A program made the position numbers and the translations under genes. 32,613 bases of DNA from assembly GCA_034723395.1 (NCBI GenBank), contig JAYEOW010000039.1, forward strand, positions 1-32,613. The letters are read 5' to 3'. Source of the DNA: Candidatus Margulisiibacteriota bacterium. Its GTDB lineage: Bacteria; Margulisbacteria; WOR-1; O2-12-FULL-45-9. The first letter of the stretch is position 1. Every line of letters starts with the position of its first letter. The notes below the pieces were generated by a model. That model saw only the letters and a list, made by a program, of their open reading frames with translations, ran no database searches and had not been told where the DNA came from. This document shows positions 164-19,265 of the stretch, piece after piece.

Positions 164-250
164 TTAGGTAAATTAAAAAAGGAGGAGTGTTAAAAGAAAA
201 AGATTAGTCCCGATTTAATTAACAAGGACCTCGGTCCGAAGGAGAAAAAG

Positions 251-904
251 ATGAGAACATTTTTGGTTTCTTTACTTTTGGCAGTTTTTCTAATTTCTAC
301 GGCATCCGCTGAACTACTGACCACGGCAAATCCCATTGGCCAGGGAAAGTGGGCGTTCGAGCTTCTCGGGTTGCAAAATCAAAATGCCAGCAATAACTCC
401 GCTTATTCGCAAACCGCTTATGGCGGCTATGCCGGCTATGGATTGACGGATAAGCTCGACCTTCTTGTCAACGTCGCGTCAGCGAATATGAGCGGATTAC
501 CCACGGGGATGGAGATCTCCGGTACCGCTATCGGAGCCAATCTAAAATATGCGGTCATCGAAGAAGCCCCGGTTTCAGTCGCGGTCGGCCTTGGATATAA
601 ATCAACGAACACAACAATTAAAACGATCACGACCACTAACACTCCCGGAACCCAAATGATGCTCGGGATCGGGGTCAGCAAGATAATGGCGCCTTTTATC
701 CCTTACGGCGGGGTCGCTTATCGAAAAACCGCGTCGAATGGGACCGATGCATCGACCCAGCTGGATGGAACAATTGGCAGCGCGATCGCCTGGTCGAAAC
801 AAGGAGCTATCTTTATTGAATATACCCTACAGTCGATCACCCTTACCGGCGGAACCAATTATTCCAGCGGCCAAATCGCGCTCGGCGTAGGATACAAAAT
901 TTAA
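251..904 (+). CDS. Exported, probable outer-membrane beta-barrel protein
   Basis: Sec signal peptide (MRTFLVSLLLAVFLISTASA), alternating Gly/aromatic beta-strands (YGGYAGYGL, PYGGVAY), C-terminal strand IALGVGYKI; SD AAGGAG upstream. Confidence 0.7.
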   Translation: MRTFLVSLLLAVFLISTASAELLTTANPIGQGKWAFELLGLQNQNASNNSAYSQTAYGGYAGYGLTDKLDLLVNVASANMSGLPTGMEISGTAIGANLKYAVIEEAPVSVAVGLGYKSTNTTIKTITTTNTPGTQMMLGIGVSKIMAPFIPYGGVAYRKTASNGTDASTQLDGTIGSAIAWSKQGAIFIEYTLQSITLTGGTNYSSGQIALGVGYKI

Positions 905-14890: not shown

Positions 14891-15553
14891 ATGGCAAATA
14901 TCCCCTGCAAAATATGCTCGAATACCACAGCCATTATTTACGACGGACAATACGACCAAAACTATTACTACTGCAATAACTGTGATTTTATATTCCTGGA
15001 CGAGAACAAAATTCTCTCCCCCGATCAAGAGAAAAAAGAGTATTCCTTCCACCAGAACAATTTTGAAAATGAAGGCTACGTCAATATGTTTCGCGAATTT
15101 ATCGACAAAGCAATTAATCCACATAAAGCAAAGATCAAAACCGCACTCGATTTTGGCTCCGGCCCCGGACCGGTATTGGCTGAACTTTTACGCAAAGAGG
15201 GATTTAAAACCGACGTATATGACAAGTATTTCGCTCCGGAAAAAGTTTATTTAGACAAGAAATACGATCTTATAACTGCTACTGAAGTTTTCGAACACTT
15301 AAAGGATCCGTTGGAGACCTTAAAACTACTAAAGTCACTCCTTAATAAAGATGGAATAATCGCAATCACGACCCTCTTCCATCCTAATAACGACGAAGAA
15401 TTTAAAAAATGGTGGTACCGGCGGGATTCTACCCATATCGCTTTTTATACGCCGAAGACTATCGAACGAATAGCAAGATTAGTCGGGATGAAGGTTTTGA
15501 TGGCAGACGAGAAGAATACGATAACTCTGGGGGACAGGGATTTTTCACAATAA
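14891..15553 (+). CDS. Class I SAM methyltransferase with N-terminal Zn-ribbon
   Basis: CKIC...CNNC, ALDFGSGPG, YDLITATEVFEH, WWYRRDSTHIAFY. Confidence 0.9.
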   Translation: MANIPCKICSNTTAIIYDGQYDQNYYYCNNCDFIFLDENKILSPDQEKKEYSFHQNNFENEGYVNMFREFIDKAINPHKAKIKTALDFGSGPGPVLAELLRKEGFKTDVYDKYFAPEKVYLDKKYDLITATEVFEHLKDPLETLKLLKSLLNKDGIIAITTLFHPNNDEEFKKWWYRRDSTHIAFYTPKTIERIARLVGMKVLMADEKNTITLGDRDFSQ

Positions 15554-15559
15554 TATTTT

Positions 15560-15847
15560 TTATTTCTTTTTTCGACATCTCGAAGCTGCTTTCAAGAATC
15601 CCCTTTCTCCCTTTATTAAAGCCAACTTTTTTGTTCGAGACCATCTCTTTATCTGAATTTCTCGTTTAGTAGCCGCACTTCTGTTTGGGTGTTCTTCGGA
15701 ATATCTAATCCTTTTCCCTGGGTTGTAGCTCGTATAATGCCCACCTTCTCCGGTTTTATGTTGTCTTAATCGTCTGGCAAGATTATTCGTTATTCCGGTA
15801 TACAAGGCTTTGTTTACACATTCGAGGATGTAGACGTAGTAAGGCAT
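15560..15847 (-). CDS. Small GIY-YIG nuclease family protein
   Basis: YYVYILEC...LYTGITNNLARRLRQH...A.KREIQIKRWSRTKK; start placed at ATG 15847. Confidence 0.92.
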   Translation of the reverse strand: MPYYVYILECVNKALYTGITNNLARRLRQHKTGEGGHYTSYNPGKRIRYSEEHPNRSAATKREIQIKRWSRTKKLALIKGERGFLKAASRCRKKK

Positions 15848-15860
15848 ATATTTCCTTAAT

Positions 15861-15956
15861 CTCAACTCTCTCGCTACGCTCGTTCGCTCGATCTCCTTCG
15901 CCTCGGAACGAGGGACGCAGTCCTGAGCGAGGGAGCATAGCGACCGAGTCGAAGGA
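15861..15956. repeat. REP-like long imperfect inverted repeat / hairpin
   Basis: 15861-15889 (ctcaactctctcgctacgctcgttcgctc) pairs imperfectly with 15925-15954 (gagcgagggagcatagcgaccgagtcgaag); internal hairpin cctcg-gaa-cgagg at 15901-15913. Confidence 0.75.
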
Positions 15957-16713
15957 CTGCCGGGCTTGGACTCGAACCAAGACTGCTTGCTTCAAAGGCA
16001 AGTGACCTACCATTAGTCGACCCGGCAATACTGTTAGTAATCCCTTCTATCCAACCTGCAATCCTACGGTTTAAATCGGTGCTTCGTCTAATCGTTAAAT
16101 TTAATAAGCCGAAATAATTCTTACCAATATTTTTCCTATTCGTTTTGATCCGATTCACTTTAAAATACACATTGTTTAAATATTTTCTACTTATTCCCAC
16201 TTCATCCGCCCAGTATTCAACAACTTCTTTAATCCTATGTTTATTATTTTCATGAATATATATTTCATATCTTATTCTATTTTCCTTCACTTTACAAATT
16301 TCACGAAGCCACTTTATAAACATTTTCATCATGCCGGGGTCCGAATTGCCAAATTTCATCCTCGAAGATTTCCTGTCTTCCCTATCCTTTGCTCCCTCTG
16401 CCCAGTAAAGAATTGTCCCAATTAGCCAAAGTTTTTCACGGTTAATATTTATTTTAGCCGCTTCTACCCTTGCTTTCTCTTTAATTTGCCGGGTGATTTC
16501 CAATCTTTTGGCTCTCTGCACCTGCGCTCCTCGTCTCGCCGCGTCTAATTTTTTTTGGGTCAATCTCTGTTTTTGCTTTTTGCTCAGGCCAACTTCCCTT
16601 AACCATAGCGATAAGGTAGACTTTGCAACAGGAATTTGTTCCAATATTTCCCCATACGAAAATCCTTTTCTTCTTAAATTAACTGCCCTCTTTTTTTCTT
16701 TTGATTTCACCAT
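15874..16713 (-). CDS. HTH + LAGLIDADG-like ('LYWAEG') basic protein whose frame runs through tRNA-Gln
   Basis: N-terminal HTH (LRRKGFSYGEI...VAKSTLSLWLR); GTILYWAEGAK helix followed by FGNSDP, resembling a LAGLIDADG endonuclease core. No stop codon before the tRNA. Confidence 0.7.
   Translation of the reverse strand: MVKSKEKKRAVNLRRKGFSYGEILEQIPVAKSTLSLWLREVGLSKKQKQRLTQKKLDAARRGAQVQRAKRLEITRQIKEKARVEAAKININREKLWLIGTILYWAEGAKDREDRKSSRMKFGNSDPGMMKMFIKWLREICKVKENRIRYEIYIHENNKHRIKEVVEYWADEVGISRKYLNNVYFKVNRIKTNRKNIGKNYFGLLNLTIRRSTDLNRRIAGWIEGITNSIAGSTNGRSLAFEASSLGSSPSPAVLRLGRYAPSLRTASLVPRRRRSSERA
15957..16027 (-). tRNA. tRNA-Gln (UUG)
   Basis: Acceptor stem TGCCGGG/CCCGGCA, D-loop TAATGGTA, anticodon arm CTTGC-CTTTGAA-GCAAG, T-arm CTTGG-TTCGAGT-CCAAG, discriminator G; CCA not encoded. 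Confidence 0.97.
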
Positions 16714-16740
16714 ATTAGAACCACCACAATGATATAATTT

Positions 16741-16768
16741 ATTATACCACCCTTGTTCGTTTTATCAA
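16741..16768 (-). promoter_or_regulatory. sigma70 promoter for the LAGLIDADG-like ORF/tRNA-Gln unit
   Basis: Minus strand TTGATA, 16 nt spacer, TATAAT with extended TG. Confidence 0.65.
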
Positions 16769-16812
16769 ACTCACTTTTGCCATATTTTGCGTCTTTGCGA
16801 TCATTAAATATA

Positions 16813-16840
16813 TGAAATTTTTCAAATAAAACGGCGATAA
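16813..16840 (+). promoter_or_regulatory. Putative sigma28 (FliA)-like promoter
   Basis: tGAAA, 15 nt spacer, GGCGATAA (consensus TAAA-N15-GCCGATAA); ATG follows 10 nt later. Confidence 0.55.
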
Positions 16841-16850
16841 ATAATGCAGC

Positions 16851-19265
16851 ATGAGAATAGGATCAAGAGTACCGTATGGCCACGCTATTCATTTTAAAAG
16901 ACCTGGCCCCGGTCCGGGTGAGGGGAGGGGAAATATCCCCCTTAAAACAACTTCTGCAAAGCCCCCCGGGGAAGCGGGGATCCCCCAGCTAAAGAATGAT
17001 CTCCTTGAAGAACTACGCTCAAAAAAGAGATACAACAATATTGAGATTGAAGCTCTGGAGCGGGCCTTTAACCTAATGGTCAGCCACTACGGGGAAAAAG
17101 AAGCCGATTGGAAAAAAACAGTTATCAACCTTCTTCACGTCGCAAAAACGCTGGCAGCCTGGGGCACCGACCCCCTGGTTGTTTCCGCCGGACTTCTTCA
17201 TCTCATGCCCGTCGACGAATTGGCCCGGGAAAACATTGACCCTCGGGTAGTTGACCTGATAAAAAGAAAAAGCATTCTTGGATCTTATTTATTTATCCCT
17301 CTTATTGGAAAGATATCGGAGCGTGAAGCAGATTACTTGTTAAAAATGTGCCTGATGCAGGAAGGAAACAGGAACGTCTGGCTTCTTGAGGGCGCGTGTG
17401 AATTCGCATCTTTATCGACCAACTCCCATACCGGCACGACCGCTTCAAGGGCTTATCATATAACTTCGCGTATACTTAGCCTGTTTGACCTGGATTCAAT
17501 ATCGGTCCTGGTTGAAGATATTTCTCTTCTCCGGCTAGATAAAGAAGAATATCAAAAAATCGAGTCCATCATAACCGCCGCAAATAAAAGATCACGTTTA
17601 GATGCTCTATCACGTCTCAGGACCGTTACAGGGTTGGTTAGCGAAGATCTAGCCCTCAAGGGAATTAAACATCGCATCCAAATCGATGTAAAAAGTGTCC
17701 CGCGAACCCTAAAAAAGATACGAAAGGGGAAGAAATTAACTGACGCAAGCCGGTTCAGGGTTATCATTGAAGGCGCGGCAGAGCAATGCGTCAAAACCAT
17801 GGACGTTGTTACCGAAGACCTGACCGCCCTTGGCTATTATGAACTTACAATGGGGAGGAACAATTTTTTGCACGGCGTTACAATAACTCCCGGCAATAAT
17901 TTTGGGCGGAAGAAGAATGGTTATGAATCAATCCATCTTCATTTCAGAGGCGAAAATTACGAACCGGTAAACGTCCAAATTCGGACCGAAGAGATGCATG
18001 CCGAGGCAGAAGCAGGCTCCGCTTCGCATGGCCGATTCAAATTAAACGGATTGCTGGGAGCCCCGTCTATTGATGAGGCCGGCATTATTAGAGAGAAGTT
18101 AATCGCCAGCGGAGAAAAATATGGAATTCACCGGGGGATAACCTATCGATTATTACCCAACGATGCCGGCAAAAAGGTAAAATTGCTGGATTTGGCTTTT
18201 TGCGTAAATCCGGACCTCGGACTGCGCTGCCCCGAACATGTAGACGTGCGAAGGATCGACCCAAAGACCGGAAAACGAGAAAGGTTAATCCTTAAAGTTT
18301 CTTCCCCGGTTGAAAATGGCGACGTCGTTATCATCAAAAAAGGAAATATCTTATCCAGAAATCCAAATCAGGCCTCAACCGCCTCAACCTCCACCGCATT
18401 AAAATTGGCCACTAGGGGCGTTCTTGATAAGCAGAGAATTCAACAGCGGACTTCCGAAGCAGCCCAGGAAGGGGAAATTGCAATCGAAACCGAACTTTCC
18501 CCCTGGTTCAGGACGTTGACCGAATCAATTCATTCAGCTCTCGAAAGAGATGGGAAAGATCCGGGGAAGGCAAAAATTTATATTTCAAGCTCGCTTTCCC
18601 ATGTTGCGCACGCCAGGTTTGGCCTGGAGGATGAAAAAGGGCTTTTTGTTTATGCCGGATTAGCTAAAGATAGAGAGCAGACACTAAAAAAAATTGTTCA
18701 AGGCATAAAAGATGCTTCCGTAGCATCCGCTTACCTGGTGGAAGAACGGCACACCCGTCTCTGGATGATGGTTCGCGATATTCCAGGAGTTGTTTCTGCA
18801 ATTTTTCTGCTTATTAATAAGCAGAACCTCGGCATAGAGACCTTTAATATAAAACAGGTAACAACTAACTATTCACTGGCAAAAATAACAATGCGGTCGC
18901 GTAAAAAAGATTTCGAATCGGAAATGCGGCATATCCTGGCGGGAGCAAAAAACATATATTCTAATATAACCCATAGGACTAAGGGGATAATGCGCAGGAA
19001 GATCGAGGTCCTTTTCTCCTTAAACCGCTGTAATGCTTATGTGGCCCATAAGATTTCCGCAATGATGGCAAAAAACGGCGCAAATATCGTTTCCGCACAA
19101 ATGGACAAAGATGAATCAAGAGCGAAAATGGCCTGCTCTTTCACAATTTCTGTCCCGATAGGTTCACTAGATTCTTATATAAGAAATTTGAACAGAAGAA
19201 TTGAACTATTGAAAAAATCAATAAAGTGGCTGCGTGTTTCTCCCCTTTCCATCGATAAATACTAA
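16851..19265 (+). CDS. Divergent long RelA/SpoT homologue (HD-like, synthetase-like, TGS-like, ACT-like domains), catalytic residues degenerate
   Basis: HVAKTLAAWGTD..VVSAGLLH, KNGYESIH, VQIRTEEMHAEAEAGSASH, LLDLAFCVNPDLG..C, VENGDVV, MVRDIPGVVSAI. Confidence 0.82.
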   Translation: MRIGSRVPYGHAIHFKRPGPGPGEGRGNIPLKTTSAKPPGEAGIPQLKNDLLEELRSKKRYNNIEIEALERAFNLMVSHYGEKEADWKKTVINLLHVAKTLAAWGTDPLVVSAGLLHLMPVDELARENIDPRVVDLIKRKSILGSYLFIPLIGKISEREADYLLKMCLMQEGNRNVWLLEGACEFASLSTNSHTGTTASRAYHITSRILSLFDLDSISVLVEDISLLRLDKEEYQKIESIITAANKRSRLDALSRLRTVTGLVSEDLALKGIKHRIQIDVKSVPRTLKKIRKGKKLTDASRFRVIIEGAAEQCVKTMDVVTEDLTALGYYELTMGRNNFLHGVTITPGNNFGRKKNGYESIHLHFRGENYEPVNVQIRTEEMHAEAEAGSASHGRFKLNGLLGAPSIDEAGIIREKLIASGEKYGIHRGITYRLLPNDAGKKVKLLDLAFCVNPDLGLRCPEHVDVRRIDPKTGKRERLILKVSSPVENGDVVIIKKGNILSRNPNQASTASTSTALKLATRGVLDKQRIQQRTSEAAQEGEIAIETELSPWFRTLTESIHSALERDGKDPGKAKIYISSSLSHVAHARFGLEDEKGLFVYAGLAKDREQTLKKIVQGIKDASVASAYLVEERHTRLWMMVRDIPGVVSAIFLLINKQNLGIETFNIKQVTTNYSLAKITMRSRKKDFESEMRHILAGAKNIYSNITHRTKGIMRRKIEVLFSLNRCNAYVAHKISAMMAKNGANIVSAQMDKDESRAKMACSFTISVPIGSLDSYIRNLNRRIELLKKSIKWLRVSPLSIDKY

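Follow-up and report, generated by a model that had tools for sequence, protein, structure and literature searches.

We analysed a 32,613-nt window, positions 1 to 32,613 of contig JAYEOW010000039.1 from a Candidatus Margulisiibacteriota bacterium (GenBank assembly GCA_034723395.1), in which an open reading frame (ORF) abuts and reads into a tRNA gene. The single tRNA gene of the window, tRNA-Gln with anticodon TTG, lies on the minus strand, at 15954..16028 according to ARAGORN and at 15957..16027 according to the Rfam tRNA model (full length 1-71, 62.6 bits, E = 1.3e-12), and has no encoded CCA. The ORF occupies the same strand (15874..16713 in the ORF listing; 279 codons, ATG start). Its frame enters the tRNA at the 5' edge, with the first tRNA base forming the third base of codon 229, spans the whole of tRNA-Gln(UUG) and stops at a TAG (15876-15874) in the 3' half of an 88-nt GC-rich hairpin region (15866..15953, minus strand; minimum free energy -44.5 kcal/mol) that directly follows the tRNA. 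An initial annotation, made from the sequence alone, had pointed out this read-through, and the ORF listing, ARAGORN and Rfam together confirmed it.

The conserved coding part of the ORF comprises 228 codons (16030..16713; minus strand, as are all features of the ORF and its upstream region). It encodes a predicted helix-turn-helix (HTH) region (residues 4-37, 16704-16603), a long helix (residues 45-86, 16581-16456) and a predicted LAGLIDADG-fold domain (residues 92-227, 16440-16033) that carries the motif LYWAEG (residues 102-107, 16410-16393). The remainder (15874..16029) is a non-conserved read-through tail of 51 codons, made up of tRNA and hairpin sequence and followed by the TAG. A sigma-70-type promoter, the putative cassette promoter, precedes the ORF at 16741..16768, with a -35 box TTGATA (16768-16763), a 16-nt spacer and an extended -10 element, TGgTATAAT (hexamer 16746-16741). 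The cores of an inverted repeat, GAAC (16758-16755) and GTTC (16721-16718), flank the -10 box (16718..16758), and a GGTGG Shine-Dalgarno-like run is found at 16725-16721.

Within the window genome, in which 47 RNA genes were found, there is one tRNA-Gln(UUG), such that the copy in the window is the sole gene for this tRNA, and one tRNA-Gln(CUG) on another contig. RNase P RNA (252.6 bits) and transfer-messenger RNA (tmRNA) are also encoded. The ORF is present in one copy, and tblastn detected no second family member in the window genome. Counting only ORFs that have 100 codons or more ahead of a tRNA and run into it from upstream, 2 of the 46 tRNAs of this genome are affected. The other such case concerns tRNA-Arg(CCU) on contig C54 (tRNA 118-193), where a housekeeping-type ORF of about 222-229 codons (approximately 183-872, minus strand), taken by eye for panB, ends 8 nt inside the tRNA; it was rejected as a family member, being unrelated to the tRNA-Gln ORF family.

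We then counted stop codon positions in 80 loci of the Gln type, to which the window ORF belongs, drawn from species-representative genomes. In 76 of the 80, a same-strand tRNA-Gln(UUG) lies 330-480 nt past the LYWAEG motif, most commonly at a spacing of 381 nt. Among the other four, two have the tRNA in place when inspected by eye, the motif pattern having been missed, and one is located at a contig end; in one of the 80 loci the tRNA lies upstream rather than downstream. The stop codon falls within nucleotides 1-22 of the tRNA in 35 of the 76 loci, 32 of these exactly at +12, the TAA of the D-loop. It lies deeper inside the tRNA in one locus, beyond the tRNA (full read-through) in four, and 3-79 nt ahead of the tRNA in 36, with 34 of the 76 stopping at a distance of 3-24 nt. 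Most aligned homologues end in C/W-G-V/I-V, residues encoded by tRNA-Gln nucleotides 1-12, after which comes the D-loop TAA. Compared with the canonical junction, that of the window lacks one base, so the D-loop TAA is out of frame and the window ORF runs through the whole tRNA. Since homologues are 226-234 amino acids long compared with the 279 codons of the window ORF, the last ~50 codons of the latter are a by-product; the 50 extra residues resemble other proteins only where those too translate a tRNA.

It was conceivable that a one-base assembly or sequencing error had hidden a D-loop stop in the window, with the true end of the ORF at tRNA nucleotides 13-15. Inserting a single base ahead of 16027 would bring back the canonical frame and the TAA, and the sequence is present in one sample only, a DNA run; no RNA data set was listed as containing it. 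However, a Logan contig of sequencing run X1 (24,510 nt, depth 17.3) is identical to window positions 15700-16900, with no indel at the junction. Run X1 is probably the source sample, so this contig represents a second assembly and not a second sample, but its identity across the junction makes an assembly slip unlikely. In addition, the junction is not a homopolymer run, and the same out-of-frame read-through occurs in four unrelated genomes. We therefore regard an artefact as very improbable.

The initial annotation had further proposed that tRNA maturation turns the mRNA into a non-stop message and so couples expression to tRNA processing. Full read-through in only 4 of the 76 loci, against a canonical stop at the D-loop TAA or just before the tRNA, speaks against reading through the entire tRNA as a designed feature, and we infer that it is a rare frame accident and not a conserved design. 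The canonical ORF would end at the D-loop TAA, to which the window copy instead appears to add ~50 meaningless codons. For annotation purposes, family ORFs that run into a tRNA are best ended at the tRNA and not listed as 280-amino-acid proteins. In the window and in about half of its relatives, in which the stop lies inside the tRNA, cleavage by RNase P would turn the transcript into a non-stop mRNA destined for tmRNA, and full-length protein would then be made only from unprocessed transcripts, an effect for which we do not claim selection. A stronger version holds that the stop has been placed by selection, with RNase P rendering the mRNA non-stop and tmRNA destroying the product, so that the amount of a potentially toxic nuclease would depend on tRNA maturation. 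The stop lies inside or beyond the tRNA in 40 of the 76 loci and in the window, both RNase P RNA and tmRNA are at hand in the window genome, and sequence scans revealed no separate tRNA promoter, all of which is compatible with such selection. Yet 36 of the 76 relatives stop ahead of the tRNA and thus do without such an arrangement; the usual stop at +12 is no more than the earliest TAA that the D-loop presents in frame; and the peptide produced by the rare full read-through is not conserved. Coupling to tRNA processing is accordingly unlikely as a selected design, and we give this version little credence, while coupling as a mere consequence is possible.

The family to which the ORF belongs is large. 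At E <= 0.001 we retrieved 1,412 relatives among 1,775 candidates, typically 226-234 amino acids long, and at least 3,878 representatives from a library clustered at 50% identity (1,884 at E <= 1e-10). At least 590 family loci are found in species-representative genomes. The whole window ORF matched no Pfam family at E <= 1, its NCBIfam matches were all far under their cut-offs, and the ESM Atlas clusters of the family are all labelled "hypothetical protein". With regard to phages, PHROGs returned a weak match to the HTH region only, and a tblastn search of the INPHARED phage collection (50,697 records) returned none.

To describe the protein we used AlphaFold 2 (AF2) models. The full-length model, built on a 91-sequence alignment, has a predicted local distance difference test (pLDDT) score of 95.8 and a predicted template modelling (pTM) score of 0.81, and consists of three short helices (residues 4-37), a long helix (45-86) and an alpha/beta domain (92-227). 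The HTH_23 model is matched by 75 of the 91 aligned members at E <= 0.1, with a best E of 1.7e-07; the window protein itself reaches E = 0.074 and 13.3 bits, below the gathering cut-off of 24.6. When the C-terminal domain was modelled alone (pLDDT 86.9; model range 1-138) and compared with 48,161 chains in a VIA structural search, LAGLIDADG folds made up 9 of the 10 best matches, at Z 4.6-6.6 over 79-90 aligned residues. These were WhiA (8dy9_I; Z 6.6, root mean square deviation [rmsd] 3.4, 90 residues aligned), I-DmoI (2vs8_A; Z 6.4, rmsd 2.6, 82 aligned), the TliVMA intein endonuclease (7qsu_A; Z 6.2), I-Tsp061I (Z 5.6), E-DreI (Z 5.4), I-Vdi141I (Z 5.3), two further WhiA structures (3hyj, Z 5.3; 3hyi, Z 5.2) and I-CeuI (Z 4.6). 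With the full-length model, LAGLIDADG folds again came out on top (Z 6.4-7.1), with WhiA the best at Z 7.1. The LAGLIDADG core follows an alpha-beta-beta-alpha-beta-beta-alpha order, and the model contains an extra helix (155-172) between strands 3 and 4.

The LYWAEG motif closes helix 92-106, the first helix of the domain. Among 48 superfamily members from an evenly drawn genome sample, 45 have Glu at position 106 and 45 have Gly at position 107. Judged from its position, and not from a residue-level superposition, E106 would be the counterpart of the catalytic Asp/Glu of LAGLIDADG enzymes. Because the Z-scores are middling, the LAGLIDADG assignment depends on the consistency of the match list together with the motif. 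Homodimer prediction gave an interface score (ipSAE) of 0.80, compared with 0.01 for the best of three controls; the mark applied to this score is reached by 20 of 30 proteins solved as same-chain pairs and by a single one of 23 with single-chain structures. Dimer runs agreed with each other in at least 92% of contacts, with a partner pLDDT of at least 84. The predicted interface is centred on residues 93-106, and its closest contacts pair residues 97-105 with residues 97-105, that is, the LAGLIDADG helix with itself, a result that may mirror likeness to solved LAGLIDADG homodimers. The models thus bear out the HTH/LAGLIDADG-like call of the initial annotation and predict a family architecture of an N-terminal homeodomain-like HTH, a helix of ~40 residues and one LAGLIDADG-fold domain, assembled as a homodimer.

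The association of the family with tRNA genes is tight, as had been anticipated for homologues of the ORF: 78 of the 79 assessable Gln-type loci adjoin tRNA-Gln(UUG). Paralogues from the window's kin and from three Patescibacteria genomes have a same-strand tRNA within 62 nt in 17 of 18 loci, the tRNAs being Met, Ile, Thr, Arg, Lys and others. A further sample, taken evenly across one Patescibacteria class, comprised 61 genomes; a superfamily member was present in 25, with 52 matches in total. For the nearest-tRNA count we used 48 of these 52, the four from genome G041 having been counted with the paralogue loci. The nearest tRNA was on the same strand and at most 100 nt downstream for 35 of the 48, on the same strand and at most 100 nt upstream for 3, and farther away for 2; no tRNA was found for 8, 2 of which lie at contig ends. 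In none of the 48 was an opposite-strand tRNA the nearest neighbour.

The tRNAs concerned belong to 18 species. When 14 tRNA labels are placed on a 54-protein tree, they require 13 changes, the minimum possible, and most label groups form starred clades, so that protein clades match tRNA identity one-to-one. Searching IMG/VR contigs gave 34 distant relatives (23-35% identity), most of which lie inside tRNA arrays; 27 have a tRNA no more than 150 nt away, in either orientation. Many of these contigs (L163-L196) are 100-500 kb long, and some may be mis-filed cellular DNA.

Several individual loci deserve mention. A Patescibacteria genome of ~0.6 Mb, G050, carries 9 superfamily copies (L118, L131, L137, L141, L142, L144, L149, L151 and L156), mostly before different tRNAs (Gly, Ile, Ala, Arg, Glu), and one copy has an in-frame TGA. 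Within the Gln(UUG) clade, L101, L118, L122 and L123 form a sub-clade with no tRNA directly downstream, and L101 and L122 instead have a tRNA-Gln(CUG) 358-1088 nt upstream; this sub-clade may represent a site shift or a branch that departed from the tRNA. Copies of the Ile(GAU) type (L104, L144) precede tRNA-Ile(GAU) and then tRNA-Ala(UGC), a pair usual in the 16S-23S spacer, and some family members may therefore reside inside rRNA operons.

We next considered how the ORF and the tRNA might be transcribed. The cassette promoter, TTGATA-16-TATAAT, has 11 of 12 consensus matches and a TG before the -10 box. A scan of both strands between 15400 and 17000 yielded 3 promoter-like sites against 3.7 expected in shuffled sequences, a count not above chance; the site at 16768-16741 is notable for its quality and its position upstream of the ORF, and the same layout recurs in related loci. 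It is the sole minus-strand site in the scanned region, and across 79 loci the 80 nt that precede the tRNA showed no -10 box at a conserved position, though weak promoters are possible there. These scans agree with the placement of the ORF in the leader of the tRNA precursor that was put forward initially. A bump at -87, seen in 23% of loci, was dismissed as an internal tRNA promoter because it coincides with conserved Tyr codons.

In the window, the GAAC core lies inside the promoter spacer and the GTTC core 4 nt before the ATG. The layout GAAC..(20-48 nt)..GTTC, with the second core inside the 16 nt that precede the ATG, occurs in 31 of 61 loci including the window, compared with a mean of 0.2 and a maximum of 2 in shuffles, and the -10 box lies between the cores in 29 of the 31. 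The arms of the repeat are 8-12 bp long in many loci. An RNA hairpin formed by the repeat in transcripts from this promoter was ruled out, given that the left arm lies inside the promoter spacer, and a resemblance of one arm to the tRNA T-loop was discarded, as it ends at GTTC. We saw no partial 5' tRNA copy, indicative of a target duplication, upstream of the ORF. The simplest reading of the sequence pattern is that the repeat is probably an operator for the dimeric HTH protein.

The distribution of the family is patchy. A superfamily member is present in 12 of 41 relatives of the window genome, and the Gln type occurs elsewhere among these 41 only in genomes G006, G018 and G036, at 53-61% identity. 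In the Patescibacteria class mentioned above, the copy number ranges from 0 to 9 per genome, and 4 of the 52 matches contain in-frame stops. ORF-less loci, which the initial annotation had suggested looking for, were found in three relatives. In G010, from the same family as the window genome, the tRNA is 96% identical and is preceded by a different gene and no ORF. In G016 and G017, from the same order, tRNA-Gln(UUG) lacks the ORF and has an ordinary promoter (GGTATAAT) 9-13 nt upstream; in G016 it lies beside a divergent RelA/SpoT-like gene, as in the window, at a protein identity of only 24%. In Patescibacteria the usual context is dnaX-ORF-tRNA-Gln with dnaX on the same strand (46 of 84 loci), and in G052 a remnant of this arrangement has kept dnaX, the promoter with the repeat and the last ~24 codons of the ORF, while the ORF interior is lost. 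As the ORF site is fixed at the 5' edge of the tRNA, these ORF-less loci and the remnant constitute a presence/absence polymorphism. One dnaX gene, in L004 (120-2435, plus strand), encodes 771 amino acids instead of the ~370 seen elsewhere, and by eye contains an intein-like insertion. A BLAST search with the 74-nt tRNA across the Patescibacteria class hit 6 of the 61 genomes and proved too insensitive for an occupancy count.

On a midpoint-rooted tree, the window copy groups with its own class (support 88, not starred) and is nested among Patescibacteria, which hints at an old transfer between phyla.

We observed the anatomy of the locus, the predicted fold, the same-strand linkage, the match between clades and tRNAs, the patchiness, the remnants and the ORF-less loci, and the explanation we favour is that the ORF is probably a homing-endonuclease-type cassette, or the long-resident descendant of one, that sits at the 5' edge of the tRNA and is co-transcribed with it. 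The initial annotation had raised an intron-less homing element as one option, and the patchiness, the remnants and the sites without the ORF accord with it. Such a free-standing cassette would consist of its own promoter, an inverted-repeat operator and the ORF. The protein would dimerize through the LAGLIDADG helix, as in I-CreI, with the canonical acidic residue kept, and would cut or bind cassette-less tRNA-gene loci and spread by repair. The HTH dimer may bind GAAC/GTTC around its own -10 box and so repress its own synthesis. The cassette promoter would also transcribe the sole tRNA-Gln(UUG) gene, and RNase P would then release the tRNA.

Several points weigh against this explanation. A target within an intact tRNA gene would leave the host copy unprotected. 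Tight ORF-tRNA junctions are also formed by ordinary genes, as in the 8-nt overlap with tRNA-Arg in the window genome and in G066, where dnaX stops 4 nt ahead of tRNA-Gln. The identity of the ORF tracks that of dnaX (r = 0.44, 848 pairs), and in none of the 848 pairs was the ORF clearly more similar than its neighbour dnaX, which gives no sign of recent transfer. The Gln-type gene looks mostly vertically inherited within Patescibacteria, where dnaX lies upstream on the ORF strand in 46 of 84 loci, and recent homing between species finds no support here. We searched for a 5' insertion boundary by aligning the window flank with that of the ORF-less G016, but the score of 22 was equalled or exceeded in 121 of 500 shuffles; a by-eye impression, from the window and the G016 and G017 flanks, that an ancestral leader had been retained was withdrawn because the alignment was not significant. 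With respect to the fold, every structural Z-score is below 8, in the middling range of the tool's own scale. A Foldseek search of the full model against the PDB returned nothing at E <= 0.001, family profile A2 gave only weak HTH-region matches among PDB sequences (best E = 0.044), and profile A3 gave none. The Pfam models LAGLIDADG_1, LAGLIDADG_2 and LAGLIDADG_3 were not matched by the window protein, and LAGLIDADG_3 was matched weakly by 2 of the 91 members (best E = 0.0014). Finally, co-transcription and operator binding are read from sequence scans.

The main rival to a homing-type cassette is a domesticated, non-cutting LAGLIDADG/HTH regulator resembling WhiA, which would control its own promoter and hence the tRNA. 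Each paralogue would then regulate just one tRNA gene, would be passed on vertically and would frequently disappear during genome reduction. In favour of this, WhiA ranks first among the structural matches (Z 7.1 with the full model, 6.6 with the domain), 31 of 61 loci conserve the inverted repeat that brackets the -10 box, the gene order dnaX-ORF-tRNA-Gln is kept in 46 of 84 loci with ORF divergence roughly paralleling that of dnaX, and the gene persists in very small genomes in up to 9 copies. Against such a role, 45 of 48 members have Glu at the position whose acidic residue WhiA-type proteins have lost, and the protein has one domain, not two, with its HTH at the N terminus and not at the C terminus. 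Even close relatives differ in whether they carry it (12 of 41 and 25 of 61 genomes do), and there are copies with in-frame stops and an internally deleted remnant. In addition, the IMG/VR relatives lie in tRNA arrays in either orientation, and relatives lacking the ORF have the same tRNA behind an ordinary promoter. On balance, we consider a domesticated regulator unlikely.

A bolder form of the homing explanation, which we put forward tentatively and regard as somewhat doubtful, is that tRNA-specific homing nucleases replace the promoter and leader of a tRNA gene, with the tRNA becoming the 3' end of the nuclease mRNA and the dose of nuclease being capped twice. The two caps would be the HTH autorepressor site at the -10 box and the combined action of RNase P and tmRNA, the latter following from a stop codon placed within the tRNA or past it. 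After such a replacement the host could not delete the cassette promoter, and the G052 remnant has kept its promoter.

The hairpin region that follows the tRNA belongs with the gene downstream of it and not with the ORF cassette. This gene (15560..15847, minus strand) encodes a small GIY-YIG domain protein of 95 amino acids from an ATG at 15847 (PF01541, E = 1.3e-19). The hairpin region is unique in the window genome. In G017, a nearly identical 5' half of the hairpin and a 67% identical GIY-YIG gene stand right after the tRNA discriminator. G018 also has a GIY-YIG gene after tRNA-Gln, while G016, from the same genus as G017, has neither hairpin nor GIY-YIG gene. A GIY-YIG gene lies downstream on the same strand in 11 related loci, and the segment 15921-15956 recurs, with unlike flanks, in other contigs of runs X1 and X3. 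The hairpin and the GIY-YIG gene (window 15560-15953, minus strand; L096 1567-1995; L097 1380-1489) look like a second, independent unit that comes and goes, and with the ORF upstream and the GIY-YIG gene downstream, tRNA-Gln is flanked on both sides by nuclease-type genes. The neighbouring genes look ordinary: a convergent class I methyltransferase of 220 amino acids (14891-15553, plus strand) and a divergent 804-amino-acid protein with a RelA/SpoT domain and a weak ACT domain match (16851-19265, plus strand).

The family shares features with several known systems. Integrase-bearing islands are known to integrate at tRNA genes, and GIY-YIG or HNH homing genes occur in the tRNA clusters of phages. 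Among these homing genes, T4 SegB and the T5 F-Tfl enzymes are free-standing homing endonucleases of the GIY-YIG or HNH type. Like them, members of the present family are nuclease-type genes between or beside tRNA genes, the IMG/VR relatives lying inside tRNA arrays, but they are of the LAGLIDADG/HTH type, reside in cellular genomes and are co-oriented with one specific tRNA, which they abut or overlap. I-TevI is an autorepressor that acts at an operator in its own promoter. It offers a precedent for an HTH-bearing homing endonuclease that represses its own promoter, comparable to the inverted repeat that brackets the -10 box here, but it belongs to another nuclease family, and the promoter putatively repressed here would, judging from the sequence, also drive an essential tRNA. 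WhiA is a conserved single-copy gene product in which two degenerate LAGLIDADG domains precede a C-terminal HTH, and it is not known to keep the catalytic acidic residues. It (8dy9, 3hyi) resembles the ORF protein as its best structural match, in combining a LAGLIDADG fold with an HTH and in possible promoter binding, whereas the ORF family differs in its one domain, N-terminal HTH, conserved Glu, variable copy number and tRNA linkage.

In mitochondria, tRNA punctuation generates mRNA 3' ends by excision of an abutting tRNA and leaves incomplete stop codons. The mRNA 3' end at the present locus would likewise come from excision of an abutting tRNA, but this is a bacterial system in which no polyadenylation completes the stop, and the outcome would be a non-stop mRNA.

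The closest enzymatic parallels are homodimeric LAGLIDADG enzymes of the I-CreI type, with which the family shares a single domain, a predicted dimer through helix 1 and a conserved acidic residue, as well as occurrence in Candidate Phyla Radiation (CPR)/Patescibacteria, patchiness and decaying copies. Unlike such single-motif enzymes, the ORF family is free-standing and not contained in an intron, intein or rRNA insertion, and has an additional N-terminal HTH and long helix. Single-domain LAGLIDADG enzymes, I-ShaI among them, have been described in rRNA insertions of CPR bacteria, in an article whose main text does not contain the word "tRNA" (PMC11270868). The ORF family differs from these in lying beside tRNA genes and not inside rRNA genes, in lacking a Pfam LAGLIDADG match and in being known from sequence alone. 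For CPR bacteria, a meeting report mentions rRNA introns (PMC10714607). A full-text literature search found no description of tRNA-linked LAGLIDADG/HTH genes.

Together, these results indicate that a large family of cellular LAGLIDADG/HTH genes, annotated only as hypothetical and with clades that each abut one tRNA gene, appears to be undescribed. If active, its members would be small nucleases that work as dimers, recognize specific sequences and target highly conserved sites, and much of the rearrangement seen near tRNA genes of ultra-small bacteria would thereby be explained. Were they also to replace tRNA promoters, selfish genes would have a new means of tying themselves to the translation apparatus, one diversified across at least 18 tRNA species.

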